From NCBI GenBank assembly GCA_016748015.1, contig JAAOMT010000134.1:1618757-1682756 (forward strand): a DNA stretch of 64,000 bases, in the 5' to 3' direction. Position 1 is the stretch's first letter. The number at the start of each line of letters is the position of its first letter. The position numbers and the translations under genes were made by a program. The DNA is from Geosiphon pyriformis uo1 (lineage: Eukaryota; Fungi; Glomeromycota). Of the stretch, positions 16,319 to 57,999 are shown piece after piece. The notes below the pieces were generated by a model. It had not been told where the DNA came from, did no database searches, and worked only from the letters and a program-made list of their open reading frames with translations.

Positions 16319-18551
16319 TGTTATACTGCTATTACAGATGATTATTTGGGGTTTGAAAACAAATAACAAACCCATAACTTGGTACTCAATAGCCAATAAT
16401 ATAGATGTAAATAATATTTGAAGGTTTTTAGAATCTAAAGGTTTTGGTTGAGTTCTTTGTATAATAGACAAAGATTCGATAGATGTATTTTTTGATAATG
16501 TTCTTAGTGTTTTATCAATCCTTGAGTTAATGTGCTTGTTTTGTCCATTATTTTCCAAAATATTTATATTCTATCAATTTCTTTCTCAGCTTGATGGCTT
16601 GTAATCTTCTGGTAAGCTATTTTCAATTTTAAGTGTTTACCCTTATTTCTGGGTTTTTTACCAGTACTATATCCTAATATTAGTACTCTGCATGTTAATA
16701 TTTTAATCAATTAATAAATCCACAATAAAACAAAAAAAAAGAAAAAGAAATAAAAAAAATAATAAAAATAATGAAAAAAAAAATAAAGAGATAAGCCAAG
16801 ACAAAAAAAAGTTAGTATTCTGTTAATAGCCATAATCAAGAGTTATTGGTTTAGTATAGTTAAGTATTGGTAACTATTAACATGAATTGTTAATAGTAAA
16901 AAGATGAATTGTGATATGTAATAAGTATTTTATTAATATTTTATGTTTCCACTTCAAGTTATAGAATACTATTGTATAAAAGGATGAATAGAGAATTGGA
17001 ACTGAAGATTCTAACTAAAGATTCTGTCTTTTTTGCTTTTAATACTACTTCTATATATACATAAATTTTGTTAAACAAGATTCCTTGAATTTCTTAATTC
17101 TCTAGCCAGAAATTCTGTAATTTTTTGAGAGGAATCCTAGAATTCTGGAATTCTGTAATTCCTTATACTGGGATCCTGTAATTCTGGAATCCTGCAATTT
17201 TTCTGAGAAAAATTCTGGAATTCCACTTTTACTATGTCTTATTTTGATTGGCTAATTTGTGTACTAATATATAATTCTTATATTCTATGAGTAACACTAT
17301 GTAAGGAATTGCAAAATTTTAGAATTTCAGAATTTCAGAAATTCCAGAATTCCTGGCTAGAAAATTGAGAAATTCAAAAAACCTCAAACAATAAAATTTA
17401 TGTATATATAGCAGTAGTATTAGAAGCAAAAAAAACAGAATTCTTAGTTTAGAATCTTTAATTCCAATTCTATATCTATTTTTTTATATGATAGTATTTT
17501 ATGACTTAAAGTAAAAACATTAAATATCAATAAAATACTTATTTATTATCACAATTCATCTTTCTATTATTAACAATTTATGTTGATAATTGCCAATACT
17601 TTATTATACTGAACCAATAACTTTTAATTACAGTTATTAATAAGATACTAATTTTTTCTTGCCTTGACTTATTTCTTTATTTTTATTTATTTTATTTATT
17701 GTTTTTATTGTTTATTGTGTACTAATTAATTTGAAAGATTAAGCATTAATTAATTAATGTCATAAATAGTCTGATAAAAAACTCCAAAAAAAGAGTATCA
17801 AGTTTAAAAAATTTATGGATAAGCTTATCAAAAAGCACAATTGCCAGAATAAACTGACCATCATGCTAAAGACAAAAATTGGATGGAATTGTAATTCTAA
17901 AAGACTACTAAAACAACACTTGAATCTCTGTTTATTATACAAAAAACTTAACAAAAACTTTTAGACACTAAAATCTTCAGATATTACTAACCAGATCAGC
18001 TATTAAGCACTAAGTTATGAGTTTGTTATTTGTATTAACATCTTAAATAATTACTTGTAACATTTAGTGCTCTCTGTAAAGTATAATCTTATAGAGAACC
18101 AGTATTAACAACAACTATTCAAAAGTGACAGAATCAGAAAGAAAAAAAACAAAATATCTAAGATTTACTAAATCCTTATTTCAACACTACTGTTAACACT
18201 TGGAATTAATCAACAACCAACTATTAATGAAATTAGTCTTTAATTTTTATGTCAATAAAAGAATTAAATATTTCTTAGGAGAATCAATAAATATTGAATC
18301 AGCAAGAGGAAATTTTTATAATAAATTAATTCAATATACCAGCTTACTATTAAACTATAACTTTAATCCAATCATTATTAAAATCAACAGAGAAATTGAA
18401 AATCACACTCAACAAACATTTTCTATTATCTATGCAGAAAAAAGCAAAGAAAAACTACAAACACCAGTAGAAACTCTAAAACAAATATAATTACCTACTT
18501 GGAAAAAACAAAGAATTGATTTACCAGTTAATCTATTATATTATCACATGC
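16319..18551 (+). mobile_element. Family A element A0, 5' fragment: LTR (16319-16329 + 17297-18062), PBS, start of ORF1
   Basis: LTR ends TTGTAACA at 18062, then TT-TAGTGCTCTCTGTAA (decayed PBS), AAAA-GTG at 18125 and homology to ORF 24870 (FNFYVNKRI..KLQTP). The 5' LTR boundary at 16319 is less certain. Confidence 0.75.
16330..17296 (-). mobile_element. Family A solo LTR
   Basis: Ends TATTACAG... and ...TGAGTAACA; GGAATTCC-type repeats; flanks CTGC/CTAT (decayed 4-bp TSD). Confidence 0.85.
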
Positions 18552-20199: not shown

Positions 20200-21576
20200 T
20201 TACATGTTTGGTCTAATGATTATGATTGGTTCCAGATCTTATGGAATTTCATCTGGTTAAACTAGTATTCTCTGTACTCCTAATTGTGGAATATTACTGG
20301 TAAATAGTGATACTATATGGTAATATGGTTTCAGTCAATTACCATGTACTGCTTTGGCTAAGATTTTGTTATCCCATCTTAATTTATAAGCTCTATTTTC
20401 AAGAATTTCTTCTATGTGAAATGGTCCATCCCATTTGGAGTCAAATTTTCCACTCCATTGTTTTTCTGCTTTAATACAATGTAAAAGTACTTTGTCTCCA
20501 ATCTTGAATTCAACTGGTTTATCTGATAGTTGGTTATTGTGTCTTTTTTTCTTTTTTTTTTGTGACTTTTGGATGTTATTAGCTGCTTTTTGCCATTTGT
20601 TTTCTAGTGTTTCCATTATGTCATATGTTTTTCTTAGCAATGTTTCCTAAAAATTGTCTTCAATTATTGGTTCTGTTGGATAAGTATTGACTTCTATTTC
20701 AACTGGTAATATTGCTGTTCTACTGTATACTAATTCAAATGGTGTTGTTTGTGTAGTGTCTTGCTTCATTGTCTGATAAGTAAATAATACTGATAGTATG
20801 AACAAATTCTATTTATTCTGGTTTTTTTGATTAATCTTGGCAATTGCTTTACACAATGTTCTGTTAAATCTTTCAACTAACCCATTTGTTTGTGGATGGT
20901 ATGGTGATGATAATGGTCTTTTTATCCCAAATCTTTGACTTAATTCTGTTAATGTTTTATTCACAAAGTGAGTTTTTTGATCTAATAGTAGTTCTTTTGG
21001 ACATCCATGTTGATAAATCAACTCTTAATGAACGAATTTGGCAACAGATTCTGCATCTGTTTTTTGAATGGCTTTTGCTTCTGGCCATTTAGTGAGATAA
21101 TCCATGGCTATTGCAATATATCTGTTGTCTCTACTGGTGATTGTTAATGGTCCGACTAAGTCAATTCCGATACAATCAAATGGTTGTCTTATTTTAATTG
21201 GTCTTAATGATTCACTGAGTCTTGTTCCTTCTCTTCTTTGATAAGCATCACAATTTTGAACATATTAGATGATGTCAGGATACATTGATGGCCAATAATA
21301 TCTTTTTCTGGTTCTTTTCATGGTTGCCTCTTTATAAAAATGTCCTACTGTTGGATCTGAGTGCATGTTGAATAATATTGTCTTTTTCTTTGGTTCTGTG
21401 ATTACTCTGGTTGGTTGATTTGAATTTTTTCTGTTCTTTCAGTAAAGTATATTCTGATGGTTGATAAAATATTTTGATTGTTGTTTTATGTTCCTTTGTT
21501 CTCATTGAAATAATTTTTCCTTAAACAATTGGGTATTTATATAATGTTAGAGTTGTTGGTATTTTTGTATATTCAT
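20200..21576 (-). pseudogene. A1 integrase ORF
   Basis: ATG 21576; H..H..C..C zinc motif, IGIDLVGP, SPYHPQTNGLVERFNRTL, KWDGPF. Confidence 0.88.
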
Positions 21577-21606
21577 TTTTTGTTATATTTTTGGGTTGAA
21601 ATGTTT

Positions 21607-23944
21607 TTAGATTTGTCTTATTTATGACAATCTGTCAGCATTTCCATTTTTTTTCTTTTTTTATAATGTACTGTATAATTAAATAGTGAAAGTTCTATTT
21701 TTCATCTGGCATAACAATCATTTTCAAATTCTTGTTTCTGGATTGAAGTCAATCCTTTGTGATCAGTGTATATGTCAAACTTCTGACTCAAGTATTTTTT
21801 CTATTTGATAACAGCCCAATAGATAGCTAAGTGTTCTAGTGCTGGAGTTTCATAGTTTTTTTCAGCTGGATTTAAGCTTCTACTGGCATAAACTACTGGA
21901 TGCTCTCTTCCATCCAGTTCTCTCTGCAATAGTACTGCTCTTAATGCTTGACCAGATGCATCAGTTGTTATTATAAATGGCTTGTTATAATCTGAATAGA
22001 TCAATACTGGAGCTTGAATAAGCTTTCTTCTTAATGTATCAAAAGCTTTTTGTTGAGTTTCAGTCCATTTGTATTTGGTGTTTTTTGTTTGAAGTTGGTG
22101 TAATGGTTAAGCTATTTTGGAAAAATTCTTGATAAAGCAACAGTAGTATTCTGCAAATCCCAAGAATGCTCTTAATTTGGTGAGATTATTTGGTACTGAA
22201 AAGTTCTTAACAATTTCTATCTTGTCTGAATCTGTTTTGATACCATCTTTGCTCACCACATGTCCCAAAAACTTGAGTTCTGTTTTGTCAAAGAAGCACT
22301 TGTTTGCATTTAATTTCAATCCTGCTTATCTGAGTCTTTCAAATACTTGTTGGAAATGATGTAAATGATCATCAAATGTTTTGGAGAACATATTGGTGTC
22401 ATCTAAGTAAACAACTACTGATTTTTACAGTAGTCCAGTATAGACAATTTTCATAAGCCATTGGAATATTGCTGGAGCATTCATCAAGCCAAATGGTATG
22501 ACTTCAAACTCAAAATTTCTTTCTCGTGTTGTAAAAGCCATTTTCTTTTTGTCTTCTAGTTTTATGGCTACTTGCTAGTAACCACTGTCTAAGTCTAAAA
22601 TTGAAAACCATTTTTTTCTTCCAAAAGCATCAAACAGCTCTTGAATCTTTGGTGTTGAATAGCTATTACCTTTAGTTACTCTATTCAGTTTATGGTAATT
22701 TACACAGAAGTGGATTTTCCCATTTTTCTTACAGACTAGTACTACTGGTAATAACCATGGGCTCATTAATGGCTGAATTAGCCCATTGTTAAGCATCCAA
22801 TTGATTTCTTGACAAATAATTTCATGGCTGGCTGGTGGTATTCTGTATGCTCTTTGTTTAATTGACATTATATCTCCAGTCTTAATTTAATGCTAAATTA
22901 TGTCAGTTCTGCCAAATTCATTTTTGCTTGCAAAGATGTCATTGAAGTTGTTGAGTAATATCTTAAGTTGTATTCATTGAAGTGAGTCTAAGTTTCCTAA
23001 GTTCATCTGTTCTAATTGTTCTGGTTGAAGCAGATAACATTCTTCTCATCTATAGATTGTTTGTAATGTGATATTTACATATCTACACAATTGTGAAAAG
23101 TCTGAAATGGGGTTTGGTGGTTGTTCTTCAATTTCAGTGGTTAAATATCCAATAGTGGTTCCTTCTGGTATCTCCATAATGTTTTCTATGTTGTTGTAAA
23201 TAGGGATTTTAATATGACCATGATTCTTGACTGGTATGTGTAAATTAATTAATCCAATTTTTCCTGATTCACAAAGTTGTGCTTTTGCCTCAAACATTTG
23301 AATCTGATTCTTCACTTTTCTCTCTATAGTTACTATGTACTAGTCATATAGTGGAATAGAAATTGATTGACGGGTAAAGATAATTTTTCCCTTGTCAATG
23401 ACCTTTTCTTCTGTCATATTAACTGGTATATTTATTCTACTTGTGAACCCAAATCTTTGTATCTTTCTTGCTGTTATCCCTAATTTTTTCCTGTTTCCCA
23501 CTAATATTAATTGAGCTACTTTAACTAGAGGTAGAAATATTGTCTGTGTTATTTTTTCATTTGGATCTATAGTGTAGGCCTTTTCTGAGTCATTTTGTAG
23601 CATAGCAATAATATTTCCTACATATCTTGCATCAATTATTCTTTCTCTAATGTTGATTCTTTTTTTTGCTAAGCTACTTCTAGATGCTAGCTGTACTATC
23701 ATTGTTGCTGAAATTTCCAGTGCTATTTTGAGATCAATACAGGTATGTAAATAGAATTCCAATTTGATGAGATCTTTTCCTAGATATCTCAAATCAAATC
23801 CTGCATCAGTATCATGCACCCATTCTGGCATAATACCTTCATCATTATCGCTGAATTATTTAAGTTCTTATTTCTTGGTGAGATTGGGAAGTGCGATAAA
23901 TGTTTTGGGATTTAAATCAGAGTCTGAATTGTTGTTATTTCTGT
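21607..23944 (-). pseudogene. A1 ORF1 3' part: dUTPase, RT, RNase H
   Basis: HDTDAGFDLRY, LASRSSLA, PVVLV.KKNGKI.FCV, YLDD, IITTDAS, YASRSL; TAA at 21607-21609. Confidence 0.9.
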
Positions 23945-26521: not shown

Positions 26522-27554
26522 TGTTACCAGTAGAATTTTAGCTATTAATTAGTAGGAAAATTACCCTTATAATTCCTATAATTAATTAGTATATTAATAT
26601 TATTTCAAATTATCATTTATTATTTAATCAATTATCACATATCACAATTCAATTAAATAATCCAATTAGTATAATAAAAAGTAGGATGATCAAATTACAC
26701 AATACCCTGAACTTTGTAACATTCTAAAATTCACCGAAATTTACAGAAATTTGCCAAAATTTATAAGAAATTCACCAAAATTTATAGAAATTCACCAAAA
26801 TTATGAATAGTTCACCCAAATTAATTAATAGTTCAGCAAAATAACTTGTAGTTTATCAAAATGTATCTTTAGTTTACTGAAATTTGAGCAAAGAGAAAAA
26901 GTGCAAGTTCATAGACTAGTACTACAACAAGTTGTATAAAAAAAGAGCTTTTTTCTTCAAGAAAATATATTTTCTCATAGTACCTTACCATAGTATCTTA
27001 CTTTAAATATCTTAATTGAAACAAATTACCTTTTACAAAATCAAATAAAAATTAAATATTTGAAACCCAAATTCTTAAATTATTACACTTGAAATTCTCT
27101 CAACACATCTAACGTTTTGAAATTGATTAGCTACCAATTTCAATAAACTGTTAGTGACTTCAGGCCTAAATAGAAAACGTTTTCCTTGATAAAATCCTAT
27201 TTTTTTTACATTTTTTTTTTTTTTATTTTTTTTTCTTATTACAATCATTAGGGTAGCCTACAGACAAGATTCTTGTAGAAGAGTTAACTTTCACAGCAAA
27301 ATAACTACACATTTTTAGTAAGCTTCTAGATGAGCAATTCCTGGGAAAGAGTTGATGTTTACTACAACATAACTACATAAAATAACTGGCAAGAAATTGG
27401 CCATTCCACTTATAAGCCCAGCAGTTTAAATTATAGGAGATAATTTGAAGATAAATTCAGTTATTGGAGGTTCAATTACTTCTAAAAAACGTGAATTTGC
27501 AACCAACAGACAGTTACAACATTCAAGAAAAGAGACCAAAAACCTCCAATAACA
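26522..27554 (+). repeat. B1 5' LTR
   Basis: TGTTACCAG...CAATAACA; colinear with 35500-36524. Confidence 0.93.
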
Positions 27555-30500: not shown

Positions 30501-33224
30501 ACACCATTTGATGCAGCATACAACAGTGCTCTCAATAAACTTTATCACTACTCTCATGATGCTGAAATGATTTTTGACCTAGCAATGGCATTGATCAATG
30601 GAGCCACCCAAAAAGATGTCCACCAAATGAAAGAAGCTGAATATATTAAGTATACCATAGAATTAGCTGAATTTGATTATGAAAATGAAGTAGAAACCTA
30701 CCACCAAATTGCAAGCCATACATATCCAACCAAAGAAGCTCAAATTCAATGATTAGAGCAAATGAATATTCAATTGTGTGAAGAATGTATTATGCCTTGT
30801 GATGACCAATGGTGTTTAGAATGTTATGCTCTTAGCATTCCTCTGCCAGATGAGAATAATGAAAATGAAATCGAATTTGGAGTATCTGAACTAGTAGAAA
30901 AACTACCAACCACCTCCATCTATCTTCTTGAAAAGCAACCATCTCTACAACTTAAATATTTTGACAACTATGGCCAAGGAATTAGACCAAAAAAAGCACA
31001 CAAAATTGATGCTGGATATGATCTAAGATACCCAGGAAAAGATACTTTGGTTCTTCAACCAAAGTCCTTAACAAAAATCAATCTCAAAATTGCTCTTGAA
31101 ATTCCACCAGGAGCAATGGTTCAAATTGCCTCCAGATCATCATTGGCAAGCAAAGAAATCAATATTAGAGGAGGAGTTATAGATGCAGAATACACTGGAG
31201 ACATTACCATTATGTTACAGAATGAGACAGACAAACCATTCAAAATTGAACATGCTGAAAAAATTGCTCAAGCAATTTACTTACCCTTAATCAACATTTC
31301 GGGTTTACAATCAGTAAACAACAAAGAACAATTGGGAAAAAGTAAAAAAGGAACTCAAGGTTTTGGTTCAACTGGATGATTTACAGTTTCAGTAAACATA
31401 GCTCTTAATACACAAAATGAATCTTACCAGATTCTTCAACTTCTTCAGCCAATTACCATTTTACCTTTTGGAAAACATCACGAAATTTACACTTGCTCAA
31501 AACCCACCACTACACAACAAATCTTTGAATCCAATAAACAAATCTGTTTAAAGCATGAAATCTCAATTCTAAACATTTATATTCCCAAAGGAATGAAAAA
31601 ATTTCGAGTTACATTCTACAATCCCAATAATTACCCTATTGTCTTATTAAACAAACTAGAGATTAGAATCATACACAGCAATATTTTTTAAGATGAAAAC
31701 CCTCAAATTGTCTCTAATTTCATCGAAATTGTAAGGCACACTCTACTTCCAAATCCAAATATCATTCCCATTACTGAAAACTACCACTTTTTGGAAGAAA
31801 AACTCTTTCAAATCAACATGGATTTCTTAGAACCTCAACAATAAAGACAATTGAAACAATTGATAACTGAATTTGCAGATATATTTGCAAAAGACAACAA
31901 TGACCTGGAAAAAACAGATATTGTTCAACATCAGATCCATATAGGAGATGCTCTACCAAAATGTCAACAAGCTTATCGAATGCCACTTGCCAGCCACCAA
32001 TTCATCAGAGAAGAAGTCCAAAGAATGCTCAATAATGGATTGATTCAACCATCAAGAAGTTCTTGGGCCTCACCAGTGGTTTTAGTTAAAAAAAAAAATG
32101 AAAAAATTAGATTCTGTGTTGATTATAAACAACTAAATAGTGTTACAATTGGAGATGCCTACCCTCTTCCAAAAATTGATGACATGCTAAATGCTCTAGG
32201 AAAAGCCAAGTTCTTCTCAACTTAAGACTTGGAAAGTGGATACTGGCAAGTCAAAATGGATCCAAAAGATAGACCCAAAACAGCATTCATCACTTAAGGA
32301 GGAAACTATGAATTCAATGTTATGCCTTTTGAACTCTGCAATGTATCAACAACATTTCAGTAACTCATGGATGTTGTATATAAAGGGCTCTTATGGCAAT
32401 CAGTAGTTGTCTATTTTGATGATACTGATGTATACTCACCAAGCTTTGAAGCCCATCTCATTCACCTGCAAGAAGTTTTTCAATGATTATGGAAAGCAAG
32501 ATTAAAGTTAAACATTGAGAAATGTTACTTTGGAAAAACAAGCTTGATCTTTTTTGGACACATATTTAGTAAAAATGGAGTCAAACCAAATCCAGGAACA
32601 ATCAGTGATGTCAAAAACTTTCAAACCTCCAGAAATACCACAGAACTAAGAGGATTTGTAGAACTAGCCTCTTACTATCAGAAATTCATAAAAGGATTCT
32701 CAGAAATTGCCAAACCACTCAATTATCTTACCAACAAAAACGTGCCATACAAATGGACTAAAGAACAGCAAAAAGCTTTTAAAACTCTTAAAACAAAATT
32801 GACAACAGCCCCAGTTCTTGCTTACTCAGACTTCAACAAACAGTTCCAATTAGCCATTGATGCTTTACACATAGTATTTGGTGCTATTTTATCACAAGTA
32901 GATGAAAATGGGCAAGAACAAGTCATTGCTTATGCTAGTAGAACACTCAAACCAACAAAACTAAAATATGGCTCAACTGAATTAGAAGCTGCCACAGTTA
33001 TTTGGGCTCTTAAACATTTTCAACAATATCTGAAAAATAGAAAAGAATTTGACATAATAATGGACAACATTGGCCTCAAATGGCTCAATAAAAAGAAAAC
33101 TGAACAAAGTGCCAAACAGTCTCAATGGAATGACTTCCTAGCAGATTACAGATATATTGTACACCACAAACCAGGAAAACTACATACCAATGTTGATAGC
33201 CTTTCAAGAATGAGACAAAATTAA
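27600..33224 (+). pseudogene. B1 ORF1: N-domain-Gag-PR-Cys-rich-dUTPase-RT-RNase H in one frame (1874 codons, point stops)
   Basis: Fragments at 27600, 28260, 28674, 30258, 30762, 31851 and 32544 share one frame. CHYCGIPGHWK.DC, LILDSG, DAGYDLRY/IASRSS/GFGSTG, YFDD, NVDSLSR. Confidence 0.92.
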
Positions 33225-33281
33225 TACCAACAACAATTCTATCACAACTTACCAACTTACCAACAAAATGACCAAACAAGA

Positions 33282-34667
33282 ATGGATCTCAGAAATTACA
33301 ACAATCTTAAAAATTATTTGGAAACTCTTACCATGCCAGAAAACTGGTCTCCAAGTGAAAAACATTGTTTACAACACCAATTAAAACAATATTTCATACA
33401 CCAGAACAAAATTGATTATAAAAATCACAGAAACCCAAACCAACCACTCAGATTAGTACAAGAAAATGAAAAAGAAACAATTTTATACAACATGCACACA
33501 GATCCGTTTTCAGCACACTTGGGAAGAGATGGAACAATTCAAAGAACCCTTGAACATTATTTTTGGTCTCACATGCAAAAAAACATTCAACAATATATAG
33601 AATCTTGTGATAGTTGTTAAAGCAGAGAAAGAATTTGCTCCACAGAACCTTTAAATCCAATCAAAGTTGGACAACTTTTTAACAGAGTTGGAATTGATTT
33701 AGTCGGACCATTACCTATTACAACCCAAGAAAATTGCTATATTGCAGTAGCAGTAGATTATCTTACCAAATGGCCTGAAGCTAAAGCCATCCAAAGAGCA
33801 GATACAAAATTAGTAGCAAATTTCATCTATGAAGACATTATTTGTAGACATGGATGTCCAATTGAACTTTTATCTAATCAAGGAACACATTTTGTGAACA
33901 ACTTGATACAAGAAATTTGTGAATGGTTCAATGTTAAAAAACCTCTATTATTACCTTATCACCCTTAAACAAATAAACTTATAGAACGTTTCAACAGAAC
34001 ATTGTGTGAATCTTTAGCCAAAGTCTCAACAGACTTTGAGCAGGAATAGGATATCTTTATTCCATCAGTGTTACTAGCATACAGAATGCTAAAACAAGAT
34101 ACTACAAAACACACACCATTTGATCTTACTTATGGGAGGACAGCAACATTACCAATTAATTTCACAGTGGAAACATATCCAGTGCAACCAATCAATGAAG
34201 AAAACTTTCAAGAAACACTCCAAAGAAGGGCCTACACTCTTCTTAGTACACTGGAAGGAAAAAGAAGAATAGCAGCAACTTATATTGAACATTCCCAAGC
34301 TCAACAAAAAAAAAGACATGACAACAAATTACCACTTATTACCAACAAATTTAAAGTTGGAAATAAAGTTTTTTTATACAGAACTAAGACTGAAAAACAA
34401 TGGAGTGAGAAATTTGAAAACAAATAGGATGGACCATTTTATATTCACGAAATTCTAGGCAATAGATCATACAAGTTAAGACTTGATGACAAAATACTAA
34501 CAAAAGTTGTACATGGAGACAGATTGAAACACTATCATTCCAGAAACAATCCTGAACCATTAATTCCACAAATTAGTACACATTCTCTTTTAATTAATCC
34601 TGAAGATATTTCCCAAAATTTAGAACCAATAATTATAATAGAACAACAACCAAACTTGAACACTTAA
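33282..34667 (+). pseudogene. B1 integrase ORF
   Basis: ATG 33282; MH..AHLG..CDSC, VGIDLVGP, ERFNRTL, DGPF; TAA 34665-67. No chromodomain evident. Confidence 0.9.
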
Positions 34668-34811: not shown

Positions 34812-35519
34812 ATAATTATTTCCCGAAATATTTAACAAATATCCCAAAAGTTAATATTAGCCTTGAAAACACTTCCTGACTTATCCATAACAATTAATGG
34901 AAGTCAAATTAATTACATTCAGAAAAAAACCACAGTCCCAGTAGCAAATCATTCACAGAACTATCACCTCTATAGAAGAAAAACAAGAAGTCACTCTGAA
35001 AATAAGTTACCAAGACTTTTGAAGCAAGCACTGGAAGAAAATCTTTTAATTGTCCCTATTGACATTTCACCAAATGCTACAATGCAACAAAAACTTCTAC
35101 TACTTTTTAATGAACAGAACAATGAACACACTCCTATCTATAAATACTTTCACATTGGAAAGACACTTTATGAACAAAAACTGGAACTTGAAGCAACAAA
35201 TCTCACTCTTGAAGCTATACAAAAGCAAATTCATAATGAATTCAAAACAGCAGCTGGATCAACAAATACTTGCTACAAACTTAAAGCAGCTTTTAGACTC
35301 TATAATTTGTTTAATACTTGTGAAAATGTTCTACAAAATCCAATACTGCAACCAATGAAAGTCCAATACATTGGCAAACTTACAGAACTGAAATTTCAAC
35401 AATTTTCAGACCAAATTACTTCAATTATTTTGGATCACTATCTCAATATTACAAATAGTGTTTGGATTTTGATGGAGCTCAGTCTTGAGAAGAAGATTAT
35501 GTTACCAGTAAAATTTTAG
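34812..35519 (+). pseudogene. B1 ORF3 (unknown ~235 aa protein)
   Basis: 218-aa open portion in the track. Start inferred from the B2 homolog (ATG at 49812; ATA here). Reads through the PPT into the 3' LTR. Confidence 0.78.
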
Positions 35520-36524
35520 CTATTAATTAGCAGAAAAATTACCCTTATAATTCTTATAATTAATTAGTATATTAATATCATTTCAAATTATCATTTATTA
35601 TTTAATCAATTATCACATATCACAATTCAATTAAATAATCCAATTAGTATAATAAAAAGTAGAATAATCAAATTACACAATACTCTGAACTTTGTAACAT
35701 TCTAAAATTTGCCGAAATTTACAGAAATTCGCCAAAATTTTAAGAAATTCACCAAAATTTATAGAAATTTGCCAAAATTATGAATAATTCACCCAAATTA
35801 ATCAATAGTTCAGTGAAATAACTTGTAGTTCATCAAAATGTATCTTTAGTTCACCGAAATTTGAGCAAAGAGAAAAAGTGCAAGTTCATAGACTAGTACT
35901 ACAACAAGTTGTATAAAAGAAAAGCTTTTCTCTTTAAGAAAATGTATCTTTTTATAGTACCTTATCATAGTATCTTACTTTAGATATCTTAATTAAAACA
36001 AATTATCTTTTACAAAATTAAATAAAAATTAAATATTTGAAAACCAAATTCTTAAATTATTATACTTGAAATTCCCTCAACACAACCAATGTCTTGAAAT
36101 TGATTAGCTACCAATTTTAATAAACTGTTAGTAACTCCAGGCCTGGATAGAAAACGTTTTCCTTGATAAAATTCTATTTTTTTTACATTTTTTTTTTTTT
36201 TTTTCTTATTACAATCATTAGGGTAGCCTACAGACAAGATTCCTGTAGAAGAGTTGACTTTCACAGCAAAATAACTACACATTTTTAGTAAGCTTTCAGA
36301 CAAACAATTCTTGGAAAAGAATTAACATTTATTACAATGTAACTACATAAAGTAACTGGCAAAGAATTGGTCATTCCACTTATAAGCCCAGCAGTTCAAA
36401 TTATAGGAGATAATTTGAAGATAAATTCAGTTATTGGAGGTTCAACTACTTTTAGAAAACGTGAATTTGCAACCAACAGACAGTTACAACATTCAAAAAA
36501 AGAGACCAAAAACCTCCGGTAACA
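35500..36524 (+). repeat. B1 3' LTR
   Basis: TGTTACCAG...CCGGTAACA. Confidence 0.93.
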
Positions 36525-37466: not shown

Positions 37467-38339
37467 TGTTACTCATAGAAATATAGGAAATATATTAGTA
37501 TGATTATTAGCCAATCAGAAGTAAGCGTAGTAAATGTGGAATTTCAGGATTTCTCTTAGGAATTGCAGGATTCCAGGAATTTCAGAATTCCCCAACGAGG
37601 AATCGCAGGATTCCAGAATTCCAGGATTCCTCTCAAAAGAATCGCAGGATTCTAGAAATTCCAGAATTCCCATCGTGAAAAATTAAGGAATTGAAAAATC
37701 TCAAATATGTATATATAGCAGTAATGATAGAAACAGAAAAGACAGAATTGATACCACAGAATTCTTAGCCTAAAAACAAAATCATCAAATAAATAATTAT
37801 TTTATATCTCAATCTACTCTCTACTATCAATACTTCATGTTAATAGTAATTGATATTTAATCACACTGGAACAATAGCTCTTGATCATGGCTATTGACGA
37901 AATACTAACGTACCAAATTGCCTTGGCTTATTTTCTCTATTTTCTTTATTTTATTTTCTTTATTTTATTTTCTTTCTTTTTTTTGATTTTGTTATTGTAT
38001 ACTAATTGATTAAAAGATTAAGCACTAAGTTATTGACATCAAGGATAGCCTAGTAAAAGACCCAGAAATAAGAGTAGGATTTTATATATTATCAGATAAC
38101 TTACCAGAAAGGCATGACTGCCAGACTAAATCCGGCCACCACGCTGAGAAAGAAATTGGGAAAACTCTTGAAAAAATACATCTACTATTGACACTATTGA
38201 ATCTCTGTTCATTATACAAAGGACTCCAACAAAACCTTCAGATACAACACTTGCAGAACCTCATCCATGGAAAAAGCTTTTGAGCACCAAGTTACAGGTT
38301 TGTTATTTAATTCAACAGCAGAAATAATCACCTGTAACA
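37467..38339 (+). repeat. A3 5' LTR (different subfamily from the A2 LTRs)
   Basis: TGTTACTCATAG...CCTGTAACA followed by a PBS. The post-TATA and 3' segments differ from the 23945/46759 LTRs. Confidence 0.9.
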
Positions 38340-44400: not shown

Positions 44401-44619
44401 ATATACTGGACAGTCATGAAATGGAAAAAATATTTGAGCCAGAAGTTTGAAGTATACACAAACCACAAGGAATTAACATCACTCCAAAAACAAGAATTTG
44501 GAGATAGAAGACAGTCAAGATAGAAAATGGCACTCACATTATACAATTATACTATACATTACAAAAAAGAAAAAAACAATGGAAATGCTGATGGTTTGTC
44601 ACAAATAAGACAAATCTAA
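38402..44619 (+). pseudogene. A3(/A2) ORF1: N-domain-Gag-PR-Cys-rich-dUTPase-RT-RNase H
   Basis: GTG 38402, ATG 39379; one frame from 39379 to TAA 44617-19 (small deletion near 38708 upstream). CHYCGKQ.H..DC, LILDSGSAGS, GFDLRY..GFGSTG, YLDD at 43816, NADGLS. Confidence 0.92.
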
Positions 44620-44678
44620 GAACATTTCAATCCAAAAATATAACAAAACCAGAACAATACCAATGAAAATAACAAAAG

Positions 44679-46061
44679 ATGAACATACAAAAATATCAAC
44701 AACTCCAACATTATATAAACACTCAACAGTTCAAGGAGAATTTATCTCAAATGGAATGAAAGAGTATCAAACAACAATCAAAATATTTTATCACTTACCA
44801 AAATATACTTTATTGGAAAAATAGAAGGGATCCAGATCAACCAACCAGAATAATTACAGAGCCAGAAAAAGAGACAATATTATTCAACATGCACTCAAAT
44901 CCAACAGCAGGACATTTTCACAAAGAAGCAACCATAGAAAGAACCAGAAAAAGATATTATTGGCCATCAATGTATCCAGACATTATCCAATATGTTCAAA
45001 ATTGTGATGCTTGTCAGTGAAGAGGAGGTATAAAACCCAGTGAACCATTAAGACCAATCAAAGTGAGACAACCATTTGACTGGATTGGAATTGATTTAGT
45101 TGGACCATTAACAATCACCAGCAGAGGAAACAGATATATAGCAGTAGTCATGGACTATCTCACTAAATGGCCAGAGACAAAAGCAATTCAAAGAGCGGAT
45201 GCAGAATCCATTGCCAAATTTGTTCATCAAGATTTGATCTGTTGACATGGATGTCCAAAAGAATTATTATCAGACTAAGGAACCCACTTTGTGAATAAAA
45301 CATTAGCAGAATTAAGCCAGAGATTCGGAATTAAGAGACTACTGTTATCACCATATCATCCACAAACAAATGGTTTAATGGAAAGATTTAATAGAACATT
45401 GTGTGAAGCAATTGCTAAACTCAGCCAAGAAAACCAGAATGAATGAGATTTGTTCATATCATCAGTATTATTTGCTTATTGAACAATAAAACAAGATACT
45501 ACACAAGCAACACTATTCAAATTAGTATACGGTAGAACAGCAACATTACCAGTAGAAAGAGAAATTAATACATATTCAGCTAAACCAATAATAGAAGAGA
45601 ATTTTCAAGAAACATTGCTAAGAAGAACATATGACTTAATGGAAACATTGGAAAACAAATGAAGAAGAGCAGCTGATAATATTCAAAAGTCACAAAAGAA
45701 ACAGAAAGAAAGACATGATAGTCAACTACTAGACAAACCAGTTGAATTCAAGATTGGGAACAAAGTACTCTTATATTGTACCAAAGTGGAAAAACAATGG
45801 AGTGGAAAATTCAATTCCAAATGGGATAGACCATTTCACATAGAAGAAATTCTAGGAAATGAAGCTTACAAATTAAGACTGGATAACAAAATTTTAACCA
45901 AAACAGCACATAGAGATCGACTGAAACCATACCATAACATCACACTACCATCTACCAGTAATATTTCACAATTAGGAGTACAGAGAATACTAGTCCAACC
46001 AGATGAGATTTTACGAAATCTGGAACCAATAGTTATTATCAACAACAACACATTAAATTGA
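44679..46061 (+). pseudogene. A3/A2 integrase ORF
   Basis: ATG 44679, in a different frame from RNase H. HHCC motif, IGIDLVGP, PYHPQTNGLMERFNRTL, TGA 46059-61. Confidence 0.9.
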
Positions 46062-46758: not shown

Positions 46759-47629
46759 TATTACTCATAGAAATATAGGAAATATATATTAGCATAGTTA
46801 TTAACCAATCAGAAGTAGATATAGTAAAATGTGGAATTCCAGGATTCCTTTTAGGAATTGCAGGATTCCAAGAATTACTGGATTCTTACAAAGAATCACA
46901 GGATTCCAGAATTCCAGGATTCCTCTCAAAGAAATTGCAGGATTCCAGAAATCCCAGGATTCCTGTTATGAAGAATTGAGGAATTGAAGAATCTCAATTA
47001 TGTATATATAGCAGTAGGATTAGAAGCTAAAAAAACAGACCTCTCAGTTTAGATTTCATTTAAACAACTTTCCAAACCACAAATAAATAACTGTTTGTTA
47101 TCTCAAACTTGCTGCCACTATCAATACTTTATGTTAATAGTAATTCATACTTAACCTCACTGAAACAATAGCTCTTGATCACAGCTATTGACAAAATACT
47201 AACTTGTAAATTGCCTTGGCTTATTTCTTTTCTTTCTTTATTTTCTTTTCTTTTCTTTATTTTTTTGCTTTGATTTTATTGTTGTTTACTAACTCTATTG
47301 AGGATTAATGCACGGGGTACTGACATTAGGATAAATGTGACTGGTAAAAGACCCAGAAATAAGAGTAGAACACTCAATTAAGGATAGCTTACCAGGAAGA
47401 ATACCAGCCATCAAGCTGAGAAAAAAATTGACAAAACTGCAGTTTCGGAAAGCTACGGATAAAACTATTACCATTGAATCTCTGTCTATTATACAAAGAA
47501 CTCAACCAAACCCTTTAGATACAAACCTTCAGACACAAACCTTTAGATCACTATCAACTGCAACTAGATTTGAGCACCAAGTTACAGGTTTGTTATTTAA
47601 TCCAACACCAGAAATAGTCATCTGTAACA
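46759..47629 (+). repeat. 3' LTR matching the A2 5' LTR
   Basis: TATTACTCATAG...CTGTAACA; colinear with 23945-24810. Confidence 0.92.
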
Positions 47630-49093
47630 CCATTGTTATTTTGAGCAAAGCTGAAATCATTGTTTTCATCATCATCATTGTTGGAGTTTAAATTAAAATT
47701 GAAAATTGATTCTAATTCTGATACACAGTTGTTGATTGGCTCGTTTTCCTTTGAAATTGTGTAAATTATGCATGGTGGTAGATTGTAGATGAGATTATAC
47801 TCATTACAATACTGGAAGTCACATGGGATCAAACAATAGTCACATAATCAGGTGTTTATTTCTTCCAAGCACTGTTTCTGTTCTTTTCTGGTTGGTGCCA
47901 AATTTTGATAGTGCTCATGAAATTTTTTTGGGCCTGTTTCCAGGTCCAGGAAAGCATTTGGATTGGGAATCAGAACAATGTTGACTGGTTCCAGAGAGTT
48001 GTTCTTGATTTCCAATATTTTACTGGACATGGCACTTTCTACTTTGGTGTTTACCATTTGCCAGATCTTGTCTTTGTCATGTAGGTAACTGTTCAAATAA
48101 GAGATTGCTCAGTGTTAGGCAGCAGTAATAAGCATTCTATGATATTACTGGAGGTTTTTGGTCTCTTTTCTTGAATGTTGTAACTGTCTGTTGGTTGCAA
48201 ATTCACGTTTTCTAGAAATAGTTGAACCTCCAATAACTGAATTTATCTTTAAATTATCTTCTATAATTTGAATTGCTGGGCTTATAAGTGGAATGGCCAA
48301 TTCTGTGCCAGTTACTTTGTGTAGTTATGTTGTAGTAAACGTCAACTCTTTCTCAGGAATTGCTCATCTGGCAGCTCACTAAAAATGTGTAGTTACTTTG
48401 TTGTGAAAGTCAACTTTTTTACAGAAATCTTGTCTGTAGACTACCCTAATGATTATAATAAGAAAATAAAAGAAAGAAAATAAAAGAAATGTAAAAGAAA
48501 TAGAATTCTGTCAAGGAAAACGTTTTCTATTCAGGCCTGGAGTCACTAACAGTTTACTGAAATTGGTAGCTAATCAATTTCAAACTGTTTAGTAGGAATT
48601 GGTTAATTTCAAAAGAGAAATAATTAAAAATTTGATTTTTTGAATTATTTGATATTTATTTCGTTTTTGTGTGTAAAAAATAATTCTAATTGTTAAATCT
48701 GAAGTAAGATATATTTTCTCGAAGAAAAAAGCTTTTCTTTTATACAACTTGTTGTAACACTATTCCATGAACTTGAACTTTGCTTTTTTTCTACAATTTT
48801 GCTGAACTAAAAATACATTTTGGTAAACTACAAGTTATTTCTGCAAACTATTAGATATTTCAGTGAACTATCAATTATTTCAGCAAATTTCTACAAATTT
48901 TGGCGAACTTTTGAATGTTACATATTTCAGGGTATTGCATGATTGATCATTGCACTTAGGTTACATTTGTGTTATGTACAAATTGGGTTATTAATTAAAT
49001 GATAATTTCAGACATTTTGCTAATGTAATAAGTAATAATTTGAAACGATAATATATGCTAATTAATGATAAAATTTATAAGAGTAATTTCATG

Positions 49094-49812
49094 CTAAACA
49101 ATATCTCTAATTTTGTCTGATAATATAACCTTCTTCTCAAGACTGAGTTCTGTCGAAGTCTAAGTACTGTCTGTAATTTCCAGATAATAATCCAAAATTA
49201 TTGAAGAAATTTGGTCTGAAAATTGTTAAAATTTCAGTTCTGTGAGCTTTCCAATATATTGAATCTTCAAAGACTGTAAAATTGGGTTTTGTAGGACGTT
49301 TTCACAGATGTGGAATAGGTCATAGAGTTTAAGAGCAGCTTTTAGTTTATAATAACTGTTTGTAAGTCCAGCTGTTGTCTTAAATTCATTGTGGAGTTGT
49401 TTCCAAATAACTTCTTTTGTGATGTTTGCTGCTGTAAGCTCCCATTTTCATTCATGAAGTGTTTTTTCAATGTAGAAATATCTATATATTGGAGTATAGT
49501 TATAGTTTTTTTCATTAAGACACAGTTGAAGTTTTTGTTGAATAGTAGCATTTGGTGGAATACTAATAAGAGTGAGCATTAAGTTTTCTTTTAAAACAAG
49601 CTTTAAAAGTTTTGGCAGGTAAATTCCAGAATAACTTCTTGTATTTTTCTTATATGGGTGATATTTTTGTGAATTTGGGGCTAAATTTGTAACTACTTCT
49701 GTTTGAGTATAATTAAGTGGTTTTCAGTAACAGTAATGGATAATTTGGGTATTGTTTTTAAAGCTAACATTAGTTTTTGGAATAATTGTTGAATGTTTTG
49801 AGGAATAGTCAT
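49094..49812 (-). pseudogene. B2 ORF3
   Basis: MTIPQNIQQLFQKLMLALKTIPKLSITV..., homologous to B1 ORF3; stops inside the LTR; one apparent frameshift. Confidence 0.75.
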
Positions 49813-49932: not shown

Positions 49933-51324
49933 TTAAGTTAAGTGTTCAAGTTGGGGGGATTGTTCAATAACAACTATTGGTTCTAAATTTCAGGGAATAT
50001 CTTCAGGATTGATTAAAGAGAAATGTGTACCAATTTGTGGAATTAATGGTTCAGAATTGTTTCTGGAATTATAGTGTTTCAAACAATCTCCATGTGCAAC
50101 TTTTGCTAAGATCTTGTCATCAAGTCTTAACTTGTATGATCTATTGCCTAGGACTTCATGGATAAAGAATGGTCCATTCCATTTATTTTCAAATTTTCCA
50201 CTCCATTGTTTTTCAGCTTTAGTTCTGTGTAAGAGAACTTTGTTTCCAATTTTAAATCCATTGGTAATTGGAGGCAATTTGTTGTCATGCCATTCTTTTT
50301 GTTGAGCTTGGAAGTGTTTAATATGAGTGGCTGCTATTCGTCATTTTTCTTTCAATGTGCTAAGCAAAGTGTAGGCTCTTCATTGTAGTGTTTCCTAAAA
50401 GTTGTCTTTATTAATTAGTTGTACTGGATATGTTTCTATTGTGAAACTAATTGGTAACATTGCTGTCCTTCTGTAGGTTAAATCAAATGGTATGTGTTTT
50501 GTGGTATCTTGTTTTAGTGTTCTATATGCTAGTAATACTGATGGAATAAAGAGATTCCATTCTTGCTCAAAATCGGTTGAGACTTTGGCTAATGATTTAC
50601 ACAATGTTCTATTGAAACATTCTATAAGTCTATTTGTTTGTGAATAATAGGACAAAGATAATGGTCTCTTGACATTAAATTGTCCACAAATTTCCTGGAT
50701 TAAATTGTTCACGAAATGTGTTCCTTGATCAGATAAAAGTTTTATTGGGCATCCATGTCTACAAATGATGTCTTTATATATGAAGTTTGTTACTGATTTC
50801 ATATCTGCTCGTTAAATGGCTTTGGCTTCAGGCCATTTGGTGAGATAGTCTACAGCTACTGCAATATAACGGTTTTCTTGGTTTGTAATAGGGAGTGGTC
50901 TGACTAAATTAATACCTACTCAGTCAAAAGGCTGTCCAACTTTAATTGGATTTAAAGATTCTGTAGGGCGAGTTCCTTCTCTTCTTTGATAACTATCACA
51001 AGACTTAACATATTCATAAATGTCTTTTCTTATTTGAGACCAGAAATAATATTCTAGTATTTTTTGGGTGGTGCTGTCTTTTCCTAGGTGTGCTGATGAA
51101 GAGTCTGAGTGCATGTTATATAAAATAGTTTCTTTTTCATGTTCTTGTATTAATCTAAGTAGATTGTCTGGGTTTCTGAAGTTTCGATAATAAATCATGT
51201 TGTTGTGTAAGAAGTATTGTTTGGCTTGTTGTTGTAACTGATGTTTTTTATCTGAGGACCAATCTGTTGGAATTGTTAATGTCTCCAAATATTGTTTAAG
51301 ATTGTTGTAGTTTTTGGGGTTCAT
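49933..51324 (-). pseudogene. B2 integrase ORF
   Basis: ATG 51324 (MNPKNYNNLKQYL), LSDQGTHF, FNRTL, KWNGPF. Confidence 0.9.
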
Positions 51325-51370
51325 TGTTTGTTGTTTTGTTGTTAATTTAAGTGGGTGTTGGTTTTGTATT

Positions 51371-54300
51371 CTAATCTTGCCTTATTCTTGAGAGACAATC
51401 AATATTGGTATGGAGTTTTTCTGATTTGTGGTGTACAATATATCAGTAGTTGGCTAAAAATCCTGTCCATTGGGTTTGTTTTGCATTCAGCTGAGTGTTT
51501 TTGTTCTGTAGCCATTTGAGTCCAATATTATCAGTGATAATATCAAATTCTTTGGGTCTGAAGTAAAGGTTAAAGTGATGTAAAGCCCAGATTACTGCTG
51601 CAGTTTCTAATTCTGTTGCAGGGTAGTTTTTTTCGGCTGGTTTCAATGTTCTACTAGCATAAGCAATTACTCACTCATTTCTATTGTCATCTAACTGTGA
51701 TAGAATAGCACCAAAGGCAGTATAAGAGACATTTGTTGCTAACTGAAATCAGTTGCTGAAATCTGAGTAGGCGAGAATTGGAGCTGTTGTTAGTTTTTCT
51801 TTGAGGATTTCAAATGTGTTTTGGTATTCAGTAGTTCATTTGTATTTGACGTTTTTGGTGGTAAACTAGTTGAAAGGTTTTGTGATTTCTGAGAATCCTT
51901 TGATAAACTTCTGATAGTAGAAGGCTAACCCTATGAATCCTCTTAGTTCTGTAGTGTTTTGAGGAGTTTTAAAGTTTTTGACAGCACTGATCTTTTCAGG
52001 GTCCAGTTTGATTCTATTTTTATTAACAATATGACCAAGAAAGGCCAAGCTTGTTTTTTCAAAGTAGCATTTTTTAATGTTAAGTTTCAGTCCTGCTTTT
52101 TGTAATCATTGAAAAACTTTTTGCAGGTGTTTTAAGTGTAATTCAAACAATAGAGAATAAACATTAATATCGTCAAGATAAATGACTACTGACTTCCAAA
52201 GGAGTTTTTTGTACACAATATCCATTAATCTCTAAAATGTTGTTGGTGCATTGCATAATCTAAAAGGCATTATATTGAATTCATAATTTCCTCCTTGAGT
52301 TGTGAAGGCTGTTTTGGAATGGTCTTTGGGATTCATGGCAATTTGCCAGTATTCGCTTTCTAAATCTAGTGTTAAAAAGTATTTGGTTTTTCCAAGGGCA
52401 TCCAACATATCATCAATTTGGGGAAGGGGATAAGCATCTCCAATGGTGACACTGTTGAGTTGTCGATAATCAACACAAAATCGTATCTTTCCATTTTTTT
52501 TTTTAACTAAGATCATAAATAAAGCCCATGAATTCATTGATGATTGAATAAGCTCATTGTTGAGCATCTGTTGTATTTCTTCGTGGATAAATTGGTGACT
52601 TTCTGGAGCAACTTGGTAGGCTTGCTGTTGCCTTGGTTTGGCATCTCCTGTATAAATTTGGTGTTGAACCAAATTGGTTCTTCCTAAGTTATTGTTGTTT
52701 TTGGCAAAGATATCGGCAAATTCTACAATTAGCTTTTTGAGCTGGCTCTGTTGCTGTGGTTCAAGTTGTCCTATGTTGATTTGAGATAGTTTTTCCATGA
52801 CAACATAGTAGTTTTCAAAGCTGGGGTTTGGGTTGATTTTTGGTAGTAAATGTCCAATAATTTCAGAGAAATTGGGGACTGTTTGGGGTAATTTTTGTTG
52901 AAAGATATTACTGTGAATAACTTCAATTTCTAAGTTATTTAATAAAACTATGGGGTAATTATTGGGGTTGTAAAAAGTAACTTGGACTTTCTTTGTTCCT
53001 TCTGGGATGTAAATATTTGGAATCAAGATATTATGTTCTAAGCAGATTCGTTCATTAGACTCAAAAATTTGTTGGGTGGTTGTTGGCTTTGGGCAGGTAT
53101 AGATTTTGGGGTGTTCTCCGAAAGGTAAAATAGTGATTGGTTGGGAAAGGCATAAAATCTGGTAAGACTCATTCTGTTCATTGAGAGCTATGTTTACTAG
53201 AACTGTAAATCATCCAGTTGAACCAAAACCTTGTGTTTCTCTTTCATTTTTTCCCAATTGTTCCCTTTAATTGACTAACTGTAAACCCGAAATGTTGATT
53301 AAGGATAAATAGATAGCTTGAGCAATTTTTTTGGCATGTTCAATTTTGAAAGGTTTATTGGTTTTGTTTTGGAGTATTACTGTTATGTCACCAGTATATC
53401 CAGCATTGATTATTCCTCTTCTGACATTAATTTCTTTGCTTGCCAAAGAGGACCGGGAAGTAATTTGAACCATTGCTCCTGGCAGAATTTCGAGGGCAAT
53501 TTTGAGGTTGATTTTTGTGAGAGATTTGGGTTTGAGAACAAGAGTATCCTTATCTGAATATCTTAGGTCATATTCAGCATTAATTTCATGTGCTTTATCA
53601 AGTTTTATTCCTTGTCCATTGTTGTTGAAGTATTTGAGTTGTAAGGCAGACTGATTTTCAATGAGATAGATAGGTGTTGCTTCAATTTCTTCTGTTGCTT
53701 CAGGTTCTCCAAATTCAATTTCATTTTCATCATTTTCACTGGACAGGGGAATGCTAAGAGCATAGTATTCAGAGCACCATTGCTCATTGCAAGGCATTAT
53801 GCATTTTTCACACAATTTAATGTTCATTTGCTCTAGCCATTGGGCTTGAACTTCTTTGATTGGGTAAGTGTAACTGGCAATTTGGTGATACACTTTTACT
53901 TCATCTTCATAGTTGTATCCAGCAATTTCAAAAATGTATGCAATGTATTTTGATTCTTTCATTTGACAAACATTTTCTTGAATGGCTCCATTGATTAAAG
54001 TCATTGCTAGATTGAAGATCATTTCAGTATCATAAGGGTAATGGTACAGTTTGTTAAGGGCACTGTTGTAAACAGAATCAAAAGGGGTTCCTTTTGTTAC
54101 TTTTTCTGAAATTAAAAAAGCATATTGGCATGTTTGATTGCAGACTCCTCCTTTGAATACAACATCAATCCAGTCGCATTCATCAGATAATCATTCTCCA
54201 CAAGTCAAACAAGGTGTTCTATCCTATTTTCCACTTCTTTTAACTAGGTGTCCCCATCATTCTCAGTGGCAGAATTTGCAATAGTAACAGGTATGGTTTC

Positions 54301-56970: not shown

Positions 56971-57999
56971 TTTTGAAGTTGTTGTTGCTGTGTTATTTCT
57001 GTGGGAGAGCACCAAATGTTACTGGAGGTTTTTGGTCTCTTTTCTTGAATGTTATAACTGTCTGTTGGTTGCAAATTCACATTTTCTAGAAGTAGTTGAA
57101 CCTCTAATAACTGAATTTATCTTTAAATTATCTTCTATAATTTAAATTGCTGGGCTTATAAGTGGAATGGCCAATTCTGTGCCAGTTACTTTGTGTAGTT
57201 ATGTTGTAGTAAATGTCAACTCTTTCCCAGGAATTGCTCATCTGGCAGCTCACTAAAAATGTGTAGTTACTTTGCTGTGAAAGTCAACTCTTTTACAAAA
57301 ATCTTGTCTGTAGACTACCCTAATGATTATAATAAGAAAATAAAAGAAAGAAAATAAAAGAAATGTAAAAAAAATAGAATTCTGTCAAGGAAAACGTTTT
57401 CTATCCAGGCCTGAAGTTACTAACAGTTTACTGAAATTGGTAGCTAATCAATTTCAAACTATTTAGTAGAAATTGGTTAATTTCAAAAGGAAAATAATTA
57501 AAAATTTGATTTTTTGAATTATTTGATATTTATTTTGTTTTTGTGTGTAAAAGATAATTCTAATTGTTAAATCTGAAGTAAGATATATTTTCTCGAAGAA
57601 AAAAGCTCTTCTTTTATACAACTTGTTGTAACACTATTCCATGAACTTGAACTTTGCTTTTTTTCTACAATTTTGCTGAACTAAAGATACATTTTGGTAA
57701 ACTACAAGTTATTTCTGCGAACTATTAGATATTTCGGTGAACTATCAATTATTTCAGCAAATTTCTACAAATTTTGGCGAACTTTTGAATGTTACATATT
57801 TCGGGGTATTGCATGATTGATCATTGCACTTAGGTTACATTTGTGTTATATACAAATTGGATTATTAATTAAATGATAATTTCAGACATTTTGCTAATAT
57901 AATAAGTGATAATTTGAAACAATAATATATACTAATTAATGATAAAATTTATAAGGGTAATTTCATGCTAAACAATATCTCTAATTTCATCTGGTAACA

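Follow-up and report, generated by a model that had tools for sequence, protein, structure and literature searches.

Results

Nested LTR Elements in the Window

The 64-kb stretch of Geosiphon pyriformis DNA analyzed here, referred to below as the window, contains LTR elements that are nested and decayed and fall into two families, A (copies A1, which is truncated, and A3) and B (copies B1 and B2). Pfam places domains of Gag, protease, dUTPase, RT, RNase H, and integrase on them. Element B1 is bounded by a 5' LTR (26522..27554, +) and a 3' LTR (35500..36524, +) that are 93% identical, have TG...CA ends, and are flanked by an exact 4-bp target duplication, ATGT. The LTRs of A3 (5', 37467..38339, +; 3', 46759-47629) share 81% identity and those of B2 (5', 57016..57999, -; 3', 48142-49123) share 96%, and both elements have 4-bp target duplications with one mismatch each. 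Within B1, a dUTPase domain (30753..31379, +; PF00692, E 1e-23) lies upstream of RT in the same frame, and is followed by a decayed RT-RNase H region free of frameshifts (31761..33221, +; RNase H, PF17917/PF17919, on 32487-33221), an integrase cistron with its own ATG (33282..34667, +; H2C2, rve, and SH3 domains, four decay stops), and an orphan gene 3' of integrase, here termed ORF4 (34836..35519, +), which has 227 open codons and whose ATG was apparently lost in B1. The decayed integrase cistron of A3 was placed with an integrase profile at 44679..46061 (+).

Several other features of the window were recorded. B1 (31377-31379, +) and B2 (53210-53212, -) have a common stop right after the dUTPase, where family A encodes Arg, and this position is likely to be a CpG decay hot spot. 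Degraded inverted LTR-like segments, including a 281-nt inverted pair, lie beside A1 (16330-18530). One public DNA run yielded 8,720 contigs for positions 32700-33900, in which C/T and G/A changes dominate (40 of 302 rows listed), in keeping with a family of very high copy number that undergoes methylation-type decay. Pieces of host genes comprise a dynein light intermediate chain (2197-2670, +), a 660-codon low-complexity exon (5165-7147, -), and an RS-rich ORF (11873-12478, +).

A Conserved Stop Separates RNase H from Integrase

The original prediction for this DNA was that, in all four copies, a conserved stop closes the RNase H frame and integrase starts beyond a short spacer at an ATG of its own, and re-measurement returned the same stops, spacer lengths, and start codons. 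At the B1 junction, a TAA stop (33222..33224, +) closes the RT-RNase H frame and is followed by a 57-nt, A/C-rich, unstructured spacer (33225..33281, +; fold z +0.8) and the integrase ATG at 33282. The A3 junction (44617..44681, +) has a TAA stop at 44617-19, a 59-nt spacer, and an ATG at 44679. On the opposite strand, the A1 junction (21574..21609, -) consists of a TAA stop at 21609-07, a 30-nt spacer, and an ATG at 21576, and the B2 junction (51322..51373, -) of a TAG stop at 51373-71, a 46-nt spacer, and an ATG at 51324, with H2C2 detected at E 5e-16. Each of these ATGs is position 1 of the integrase profile. The spacers place integrase in frame 0 (A1 and B1), +2 (A3), or +1 (B2), covering all three frames as had been claimed, and their summed composition (110 A, 47 C, 29 T, and 6 G over 192 nt) agrees with the G-poor, A/C-rich character attributed to them. 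A second in-frame stop, proposed for three spacers, is present in A1, A3, and B2; since it is missing from the B1 spacer, B1 alone would permit readthrough. The proposed RNase H ending, LS(R)[I/M]RQ[I/N/D], describes B1 (LSRMRQN) and B2 (LSRIRQD) but not A3 (LSQIRQI) or A1 (LS*IRQI), and A1 carries an additional decay stop four codons before the junction stop as well as a 1-nt frameshift just upstream.

Out-of-frame ATGs are found inside the spacers of B1 (33268) and A3 (44663). At position 33270, A makes up 57,710 of 57,792 in the summed contig depth of other copies from one public DNA run, and thus the ATG at 33268 is private to B1. Contigs of one public DNA run that cover 33196-33292 contained no alternative letter at the B1 stop, but this comparison is blind near the ends of the stretch, where position 33270 dropped out of it, and is uninformative about the stop.

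An alignment of RT-RNase H and integrase contains 45 columns with decay stops, which mainly affect Q, R, and W codons; 37 of these columns have the stop in one copy, 7 in two, 1 in three, and 0 in four. The junction stop is shared by 4/4 copies and by both families. B1 and B2 differ by eight indels over ~2,800 nt, five of them inside the spacer, and A1 differs from A3 by a 29-nt indel that is also inside the spacer. The junction spacer behaves like non-coding DNA. Because LTRs and 4-bp target duplications surround the split elements, the split layout itself has transposed.

Split Elements Form a Lineage

A protein search with the B1 integrase returned 963 proteins, with lengths of 254-811 aa. 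Among the top 120, lengths were 360-453 aa and 117 proteins started with Met, mostly at the same residue, but the search was restricted by length, which favors stand-alone forms, and DNA and RT were therefore examined separately. Met1 is invariant in 51 aligned homologs (50 of the rows hand-selected from the best 120). The nearest named match is a gene model of Geosiphon pyriformis (75% over 35% of the query), and the named members of the cluster belong to Rhizophagus, Entrophospora, and Paraglomus, which makes a Glomeromycota fungus the likely host. Rhizophagus irregularis has a Gag-PR-RT-RNase H protein of 1,577 aa that ends in LSRIR and a 419-aa integrase, which have consecutive accessions and lie on contigs of equal length. 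Intact families in this species include CAB4415525/CAB4415526 and, for the RNA motif described below, the P0092 family. Viral contigs searched for the integrase gave only distant ones.

From 515 matched soil metagenome loci, 80 were kept, and 35 of these include integrase as well as the end of RNase H; 32 of the 35 are split and 3 are fused, although the loci are related and these counts do not represent independent events. The distances from stop to ATG in the split loci are -11 (two near-identical loci), -8 (two), -4 (two), -1 (two), +2, and +5 nt, with 14 further loci at 24-93 nt and eight at 156-727 nt, so that 10/32 lie within 11 nt, 13/32 within 30 nt, and 24/32 within 93 nt. The original prediction argued against decay stops, readthrough, and a fixed frameshift, and the relatives bear this out: intact ones are also split, with 19/32 split loci free of stops in both matched regions, RT-RNase H and integrase; their frames are distributed 9/9/14; and all three stop codons are in use (TAA 21, TAG 6, TGA 5). 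An intron that would restore the fusion is contradicted by donor-like sites at 3/35 junctions versus 9.6 in shuffled sequences. We conclude from these comparisons that the split is not a product of decay.

An RT profile built from split loci was searched against long proteins, and among the 120 listed, the top 39 (best domain at least 730 bits, up to 1,849 aa) all lacked integrase, while 77 of the other 81, which are named animal and plant gene models, contained it. A search of a representative library was crowded by gene models with several RTs; when these were re-ranked by best domain, the top four lacked integrase, and fused proteins appeared from 677 bits down, mixed with integrase-less ones. 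In an RT tree of 64 rows, hand-thinned from 161 and without an external root, 37 of the 40 split or integrase-less rows, including the window's four, fell on one side of a branch with SH-aLRT support of 95; L066, P0344, and P0354 were the exceptions among the fused rows. A FastTree analysis of all 161 rows was weakly resolved and grouped the fused locus L070 with the split locus L038. A single origin of the split lineage is plausible.

Pol varies in its other domains. It extends 285-587 aa beyond RNase H in L019 (2420-3271), L022 (3497-4438), and L044 (4945-6702), with a Cys/His-rich stretch, and such long extensions are present in many of the closest long RT proteins; no Pfam family matched the extensions of these three loci. 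In P0207, P0218, and P0238, Pol contains a NUDIX domain (PF00293) where the window elements have dUTPase.

AUG Depletion Begins at the Pol Stop

Spacers of 20-300 nt (n = 19) contain 11 AUGs versus 20.4 expected, and 0/1000 dinucleotide shuffles were as low; when the three longest spacers were added, the deficit was not significant (38 versus 45.1, p 0.08). The last 60 nt of Pol contain 21 out-of-frame AUGs versus 21.1 expected, and depletion of such AUGs upstream of the Pol stop was absent from all 8 bins examined, to 600 nt. The AUG-poor zone thus begins at the stop, which is the pattern predicted by termination followed by scanning, whereas a capped or spliced RNA that begins inside Pol should also clear AUGs from the Pol tail. 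The integrase AUG has A at -3 in 39/51 homologs, compared with 104/301 internal Met codons. Neither acceptors nor branch points were enriched in the 40 nt before the integrase AUG (YAG in 34/57 versus 34.7), and 9/57, A1 and B2 among them, have no AG at all in this interval. In L004, L006, L016, and L027, out-of-frame AUGs 34-80 nt upstream open frames that overrun the integrase start. RNA structure around the stop or start gave no general signal among the junctions, and the small hairpins that precede the stop in A1, A3, and B2 were not significant. The UGGGA motif of TURBS was found upstream of the stop at 2/35 junctions, and the window spacers, at 30-59 nt, exceed TURBS spacing (~20-30 nt).

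Stop/Start Overlaps Link Additional Genes into Chains

Five loci contain extra genes between Pol and integrase that are chained by stop/start overlaps. From upstream to downstream, with distances in nt, the chains are 90 aa, -4, 238 aa, -4, and integrase in L029; 49 aa, -4, 83 aa, and -1 in L064; +32, 83 aa, -13, 85 aa, and -8 in L032; 263 aa and -4 in L071; and +28, 44 aa, and -4 in L024. Such overlaps were present in 5/19 loci examined versus 9/1042 control ATGs, and the integrase tree, in which the row L061 is mistranslated and should be disregarded, places gene chains in three or more branches. Inserted genes lie at 181-972 in L071 and 521-1237 in L029; that of L071 has a weak thymidylate kinase-like P-loop match that is below the cut-off (E 0.0045).

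A conserved ORF also follows integrase in most of the loci listed, at -8, -4, or +32 to +129 nt. The ORF4 of B1 and those at the equivalent position in 18 relatives (e.g., L015:1596-2039), 19 in all, align on a helical core, and the predicted model has a pLDDT of 94.7. Pfam gave no match for the first member and two weak single matches among the 19, the Atlas gave none, Foldseek gave none at E<=0.001, and the best VIA Z was 4.3; these negative searches indicate neither a new fold nor a function. No likeness to TAV was found in the family and fold searches. The ORF after integrase in family A matches the ORF4 profile weakly (probability 4.6%).

A Covarying RNA Motif in One Branch

In 15 of the 80 loci (14 found by pattern, and L061 by model alone), a 40-nt RNA motif lies in the interval that separates the upstream stop from the integrase AUG, for example at L010:182-228, L012:582-629, L019:3294-3341, L022:4460-4506, and L035:172-218. 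In 13 aligned rows, 95.9% of cells pair and both partners vary in 7 of 13 pairs (0/500 shuffles); controls slid along the sequence reached at most 47%, a contrast that is inflated because the structure was drawn by hand from the same rows. An invariant U-G pair points to RNA, and a nearly invariant pseudoknot of two pairs is possible. The motif ends 3-4 nt before the integrase AUG in 9/15 loci. Gaps between the upstream stop and the motif (n = 12, 613 nt) contain no AUG versus 4.8 expected (P 0.005). The motif is confined to one side of an integrase-tree branch with support of 97, which includes an R. irregularis integrase, and in this branch Pol has a long C-terminal extension. Rfam searches of 14 loci at a threshold of E<=0.1 left the motif unmatched, with nothing beyond chance rows on two short stretches, in a search that short elements can escape. 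The motif was not found in the window (best E 0.59), and its pattern had 0 matches in viral contigs; one match in a prokaryote genome was judged to be chance because its stem was unpaired. The motif could be a reinitiation element, an entry site, a nuclease block, or a ribozyme.

Discussion

Judged by its sequences, the separate integrase is a real, lineage-wide layout and a variant of Ty3/gypsy, which would entail separate translation of integrase and its delivery outside the polyprotein, as originally proposed. Of the three routes suggested at that time, reinitiation, internal entry, and subgenomic RNA, reinitiation appears to have the most support, and integrase is probably translated from the same full-length RNA as Pol by stop and restart. 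Ribosomes that read the Gag-protease-(dUTPase)-RT-RNase H frame would terminate at its stop, remain on the RNA, scan the short AUG-free spacer, and restart at the integrase AUG. The window spacers would serve as a plain A/C-rich scanning tract of LINE-1-like length, and in other branches stop and start codons that overlap, or a small RNA structure ahead of the AUG, would take its place. A predicted consequence is low integrase output relative to Gag-Pol. Foamy virus Pol binds its own RNA, and free integrase might similarly enter the particle by binding the RNA from which it was made, the packaging route we prefer, or by binding a partner protein.

Coupled translation seems a better account than a shorter RNA for integrase (and ORF4), whether transcribed from an internal promoter, spliced from a 5' donor, or processed from the genomic RNA, in which the spacer would be a 5' UTR. 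Precedents exist in the spliced RNAs for env and for foamy virus pol, a structured motif could mark or protect the 5' end, and long spacers with AUGs (L044) would be tolerated. The invariant AUG in good context also favors this explanation, being unlike TURBS reinitiation, which tolerates start changes according to the excerpted text of PMC5972666. However, acceptors and branch points are not enriched before the AUG, upstream AUGs in L004, L006, L016, and L027 open frames that cross the integrase start, depletion starts at the upstream stop even ahead of the motif, and each overlapped gene in a chain would require its own RNA; we consider a shorter RNA rather unlikely. Less likely still is internal entry near the integrase AUG, through the A-rich tract or the motif and independent of Pol translation. 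The position of the motif just before the AUG, its tolerance of AUGs within it, and the unstructured A-rich spacers would suit such entry, but the motif is confined to one branch outside the window, and close stop-start spacing and the overlaps of inserted genes are left unexplained.

It is very improbable that readthrough, frameshifting, or removal of an intron still yields an RNase H-integrase fusion, or that the stops are decay. The open, in-frame spacer of B1 and the heavy mutation of the window copies would allow it, and against it stand the three frames and three stop codons, the overlaps, spacers of up to 727 nt, inserted genes, the few donor-like sites, and intact stand-alone integrases with an invariant Met. 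Reinitiation has difficulties of its own: the chains do not account for L044 (727 nt, 12 AUGs), L059 (278 nt), and L073 (239 nt), and an AUG inside the motif in 2/15 loci is awkward for linear scanning. Some of the stop/start overlaps may have arisen incidentally, where a run-on frame happens to stop within the start region, and leaky scanning, or a subgenomic RNA beginning right at the stop, could yield the same AUG pattern.

A broader model is offered tentatively, as one that we hold to be possible and somewhat doubtful when all of its parts are taken together. These elements would be an old, operon-like fungal LTR lineage. Ribosomes would reinitiate repeatedly, each time after a long ORF, to read three to five serial cistrons from one genomic RNA, overlap of stop and start codons would let new genes slot in, the covarying 40-nt structure would be a reinitiation element of a new class, and integrase would be packaged in free form, with no polyprotein and possibly by way of ORF4. 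Fusion to Pol is thought to package integrase and set its amount in LTR elements and retroviruses, and a successful lineage with free integrase would mean that another route exists, which can be tested in Rhizophagus irregularis. Eukaryotic ribosomes seldom reinitiate after long ORFs, a process that is poorly understood, and the lineage supplies dozens of natural variants of the junction, along with serial chains and a compact RNA as a candidate element. The layout also bears on integrase exchange between gypsy elements and Ginger-like transposons, and annotation pipelines may score split elements as broken.

Comparison with Known Systems

The elements resemble Ty3/gypsy (Metaviridae), such as yeast Ty3, in their Ty3-type RT-RNase H, the order PR-RT-RH-IN, the H2C2/rve/SH3 integrase, and, in the window, TG...CA LTRs and a 4-bp target duplication; a profile of 20 relatives matched the Ty3 RT best among solved structures (4OL8, 479 bits; next, 336). 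They depart from the usual layout in having integrase outside Pol and extra cistrons before and after it. In the passages of PMC2864245 that describe them, PosPlaTy3-5 also has dUTPase between PR and RT, and the elements surveyed have one fused or two (gag, pol) ORFs. No description of an LTR element with a separate integrase ORF was found in the open-access literature, and subscription papers, Repbase, or supplements may have one. In the excerpted texts, mentions of separate ORFs concern only gag/pol, env, an added RNase H, or the DIRS recombinase (PMC12440569, PMC5911963, PMC2836005, PMC6431247, PMC2582038, PMC7947760, PMC9040795, PMC10275272, PMC5972666, PMC2864245, PMC11952901, PMC13468544, PMC10508981, 10.1101/2021.03.30.436303, 10.64898/2026.05.21.726589).

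Ginger1, as excerpted from PMC2836005, has a stand-alone gypsy-like integrase that starts with a YPYY-like region; identity with Ginger1 was rejected, since RT lies upstream and LTRs surround the elements here, and neither terminal inverted repeats nor an Ulp1/OTU tail was seen. Troyka elements, in the relevant part of PMC12440569, have a fused Gag-Pol, CG ends, and 3-bp duplications and are found in animals only, whereas the window elements have TG...CA ends, a 4-bp duplication, and a split Pol. Identity with Troyka was rejected, as was identity with lokiretroviruses and Odin, two other unusual LTR lineages considered as candidates, whose excerpted descriptions mention no separate integrase.

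Among systems that restart translation, the victorivirus HvV190S, the hypovirus CHV1, and calicivirus TURBS share AUGA or UAAUG overlaps with L014, L038, L006, and L016. TURBS-type systems differ from the window, with its spacers of 30-59 nt, and from the junctions generally, with UGGGA in 2/35. To our knowledge, caulimoviruses have no integrase. Restart of the fungal-virus/TURBS type requires codons within ~20-30 nt and an upstream element, and Cauliflower mosaic virus, with TAV, is a reverse-transcribing element that reads serial cistrons by reinitiation, both in the pertinent passages of PMC10275272. Because the TURBS features fail, the best analog for the window is the spaced LINE-1 type. 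Reinitiation at LINE-1 ORF2 is reportedly AUG-independent, whereas the AUG is invariant here. In the account excerpted from PMC5972666, LINE-1 has a second long ORF beyond a stop and a 63-nt spacer, and SART1 has a UAAUG overlap and also needs a downstream structure. LINE-1 and SART1 are non-LTR elements with two ORFs, whereas in the lineage described here the enzyme module of an LTR element is split and as many as five cistrons are chained.
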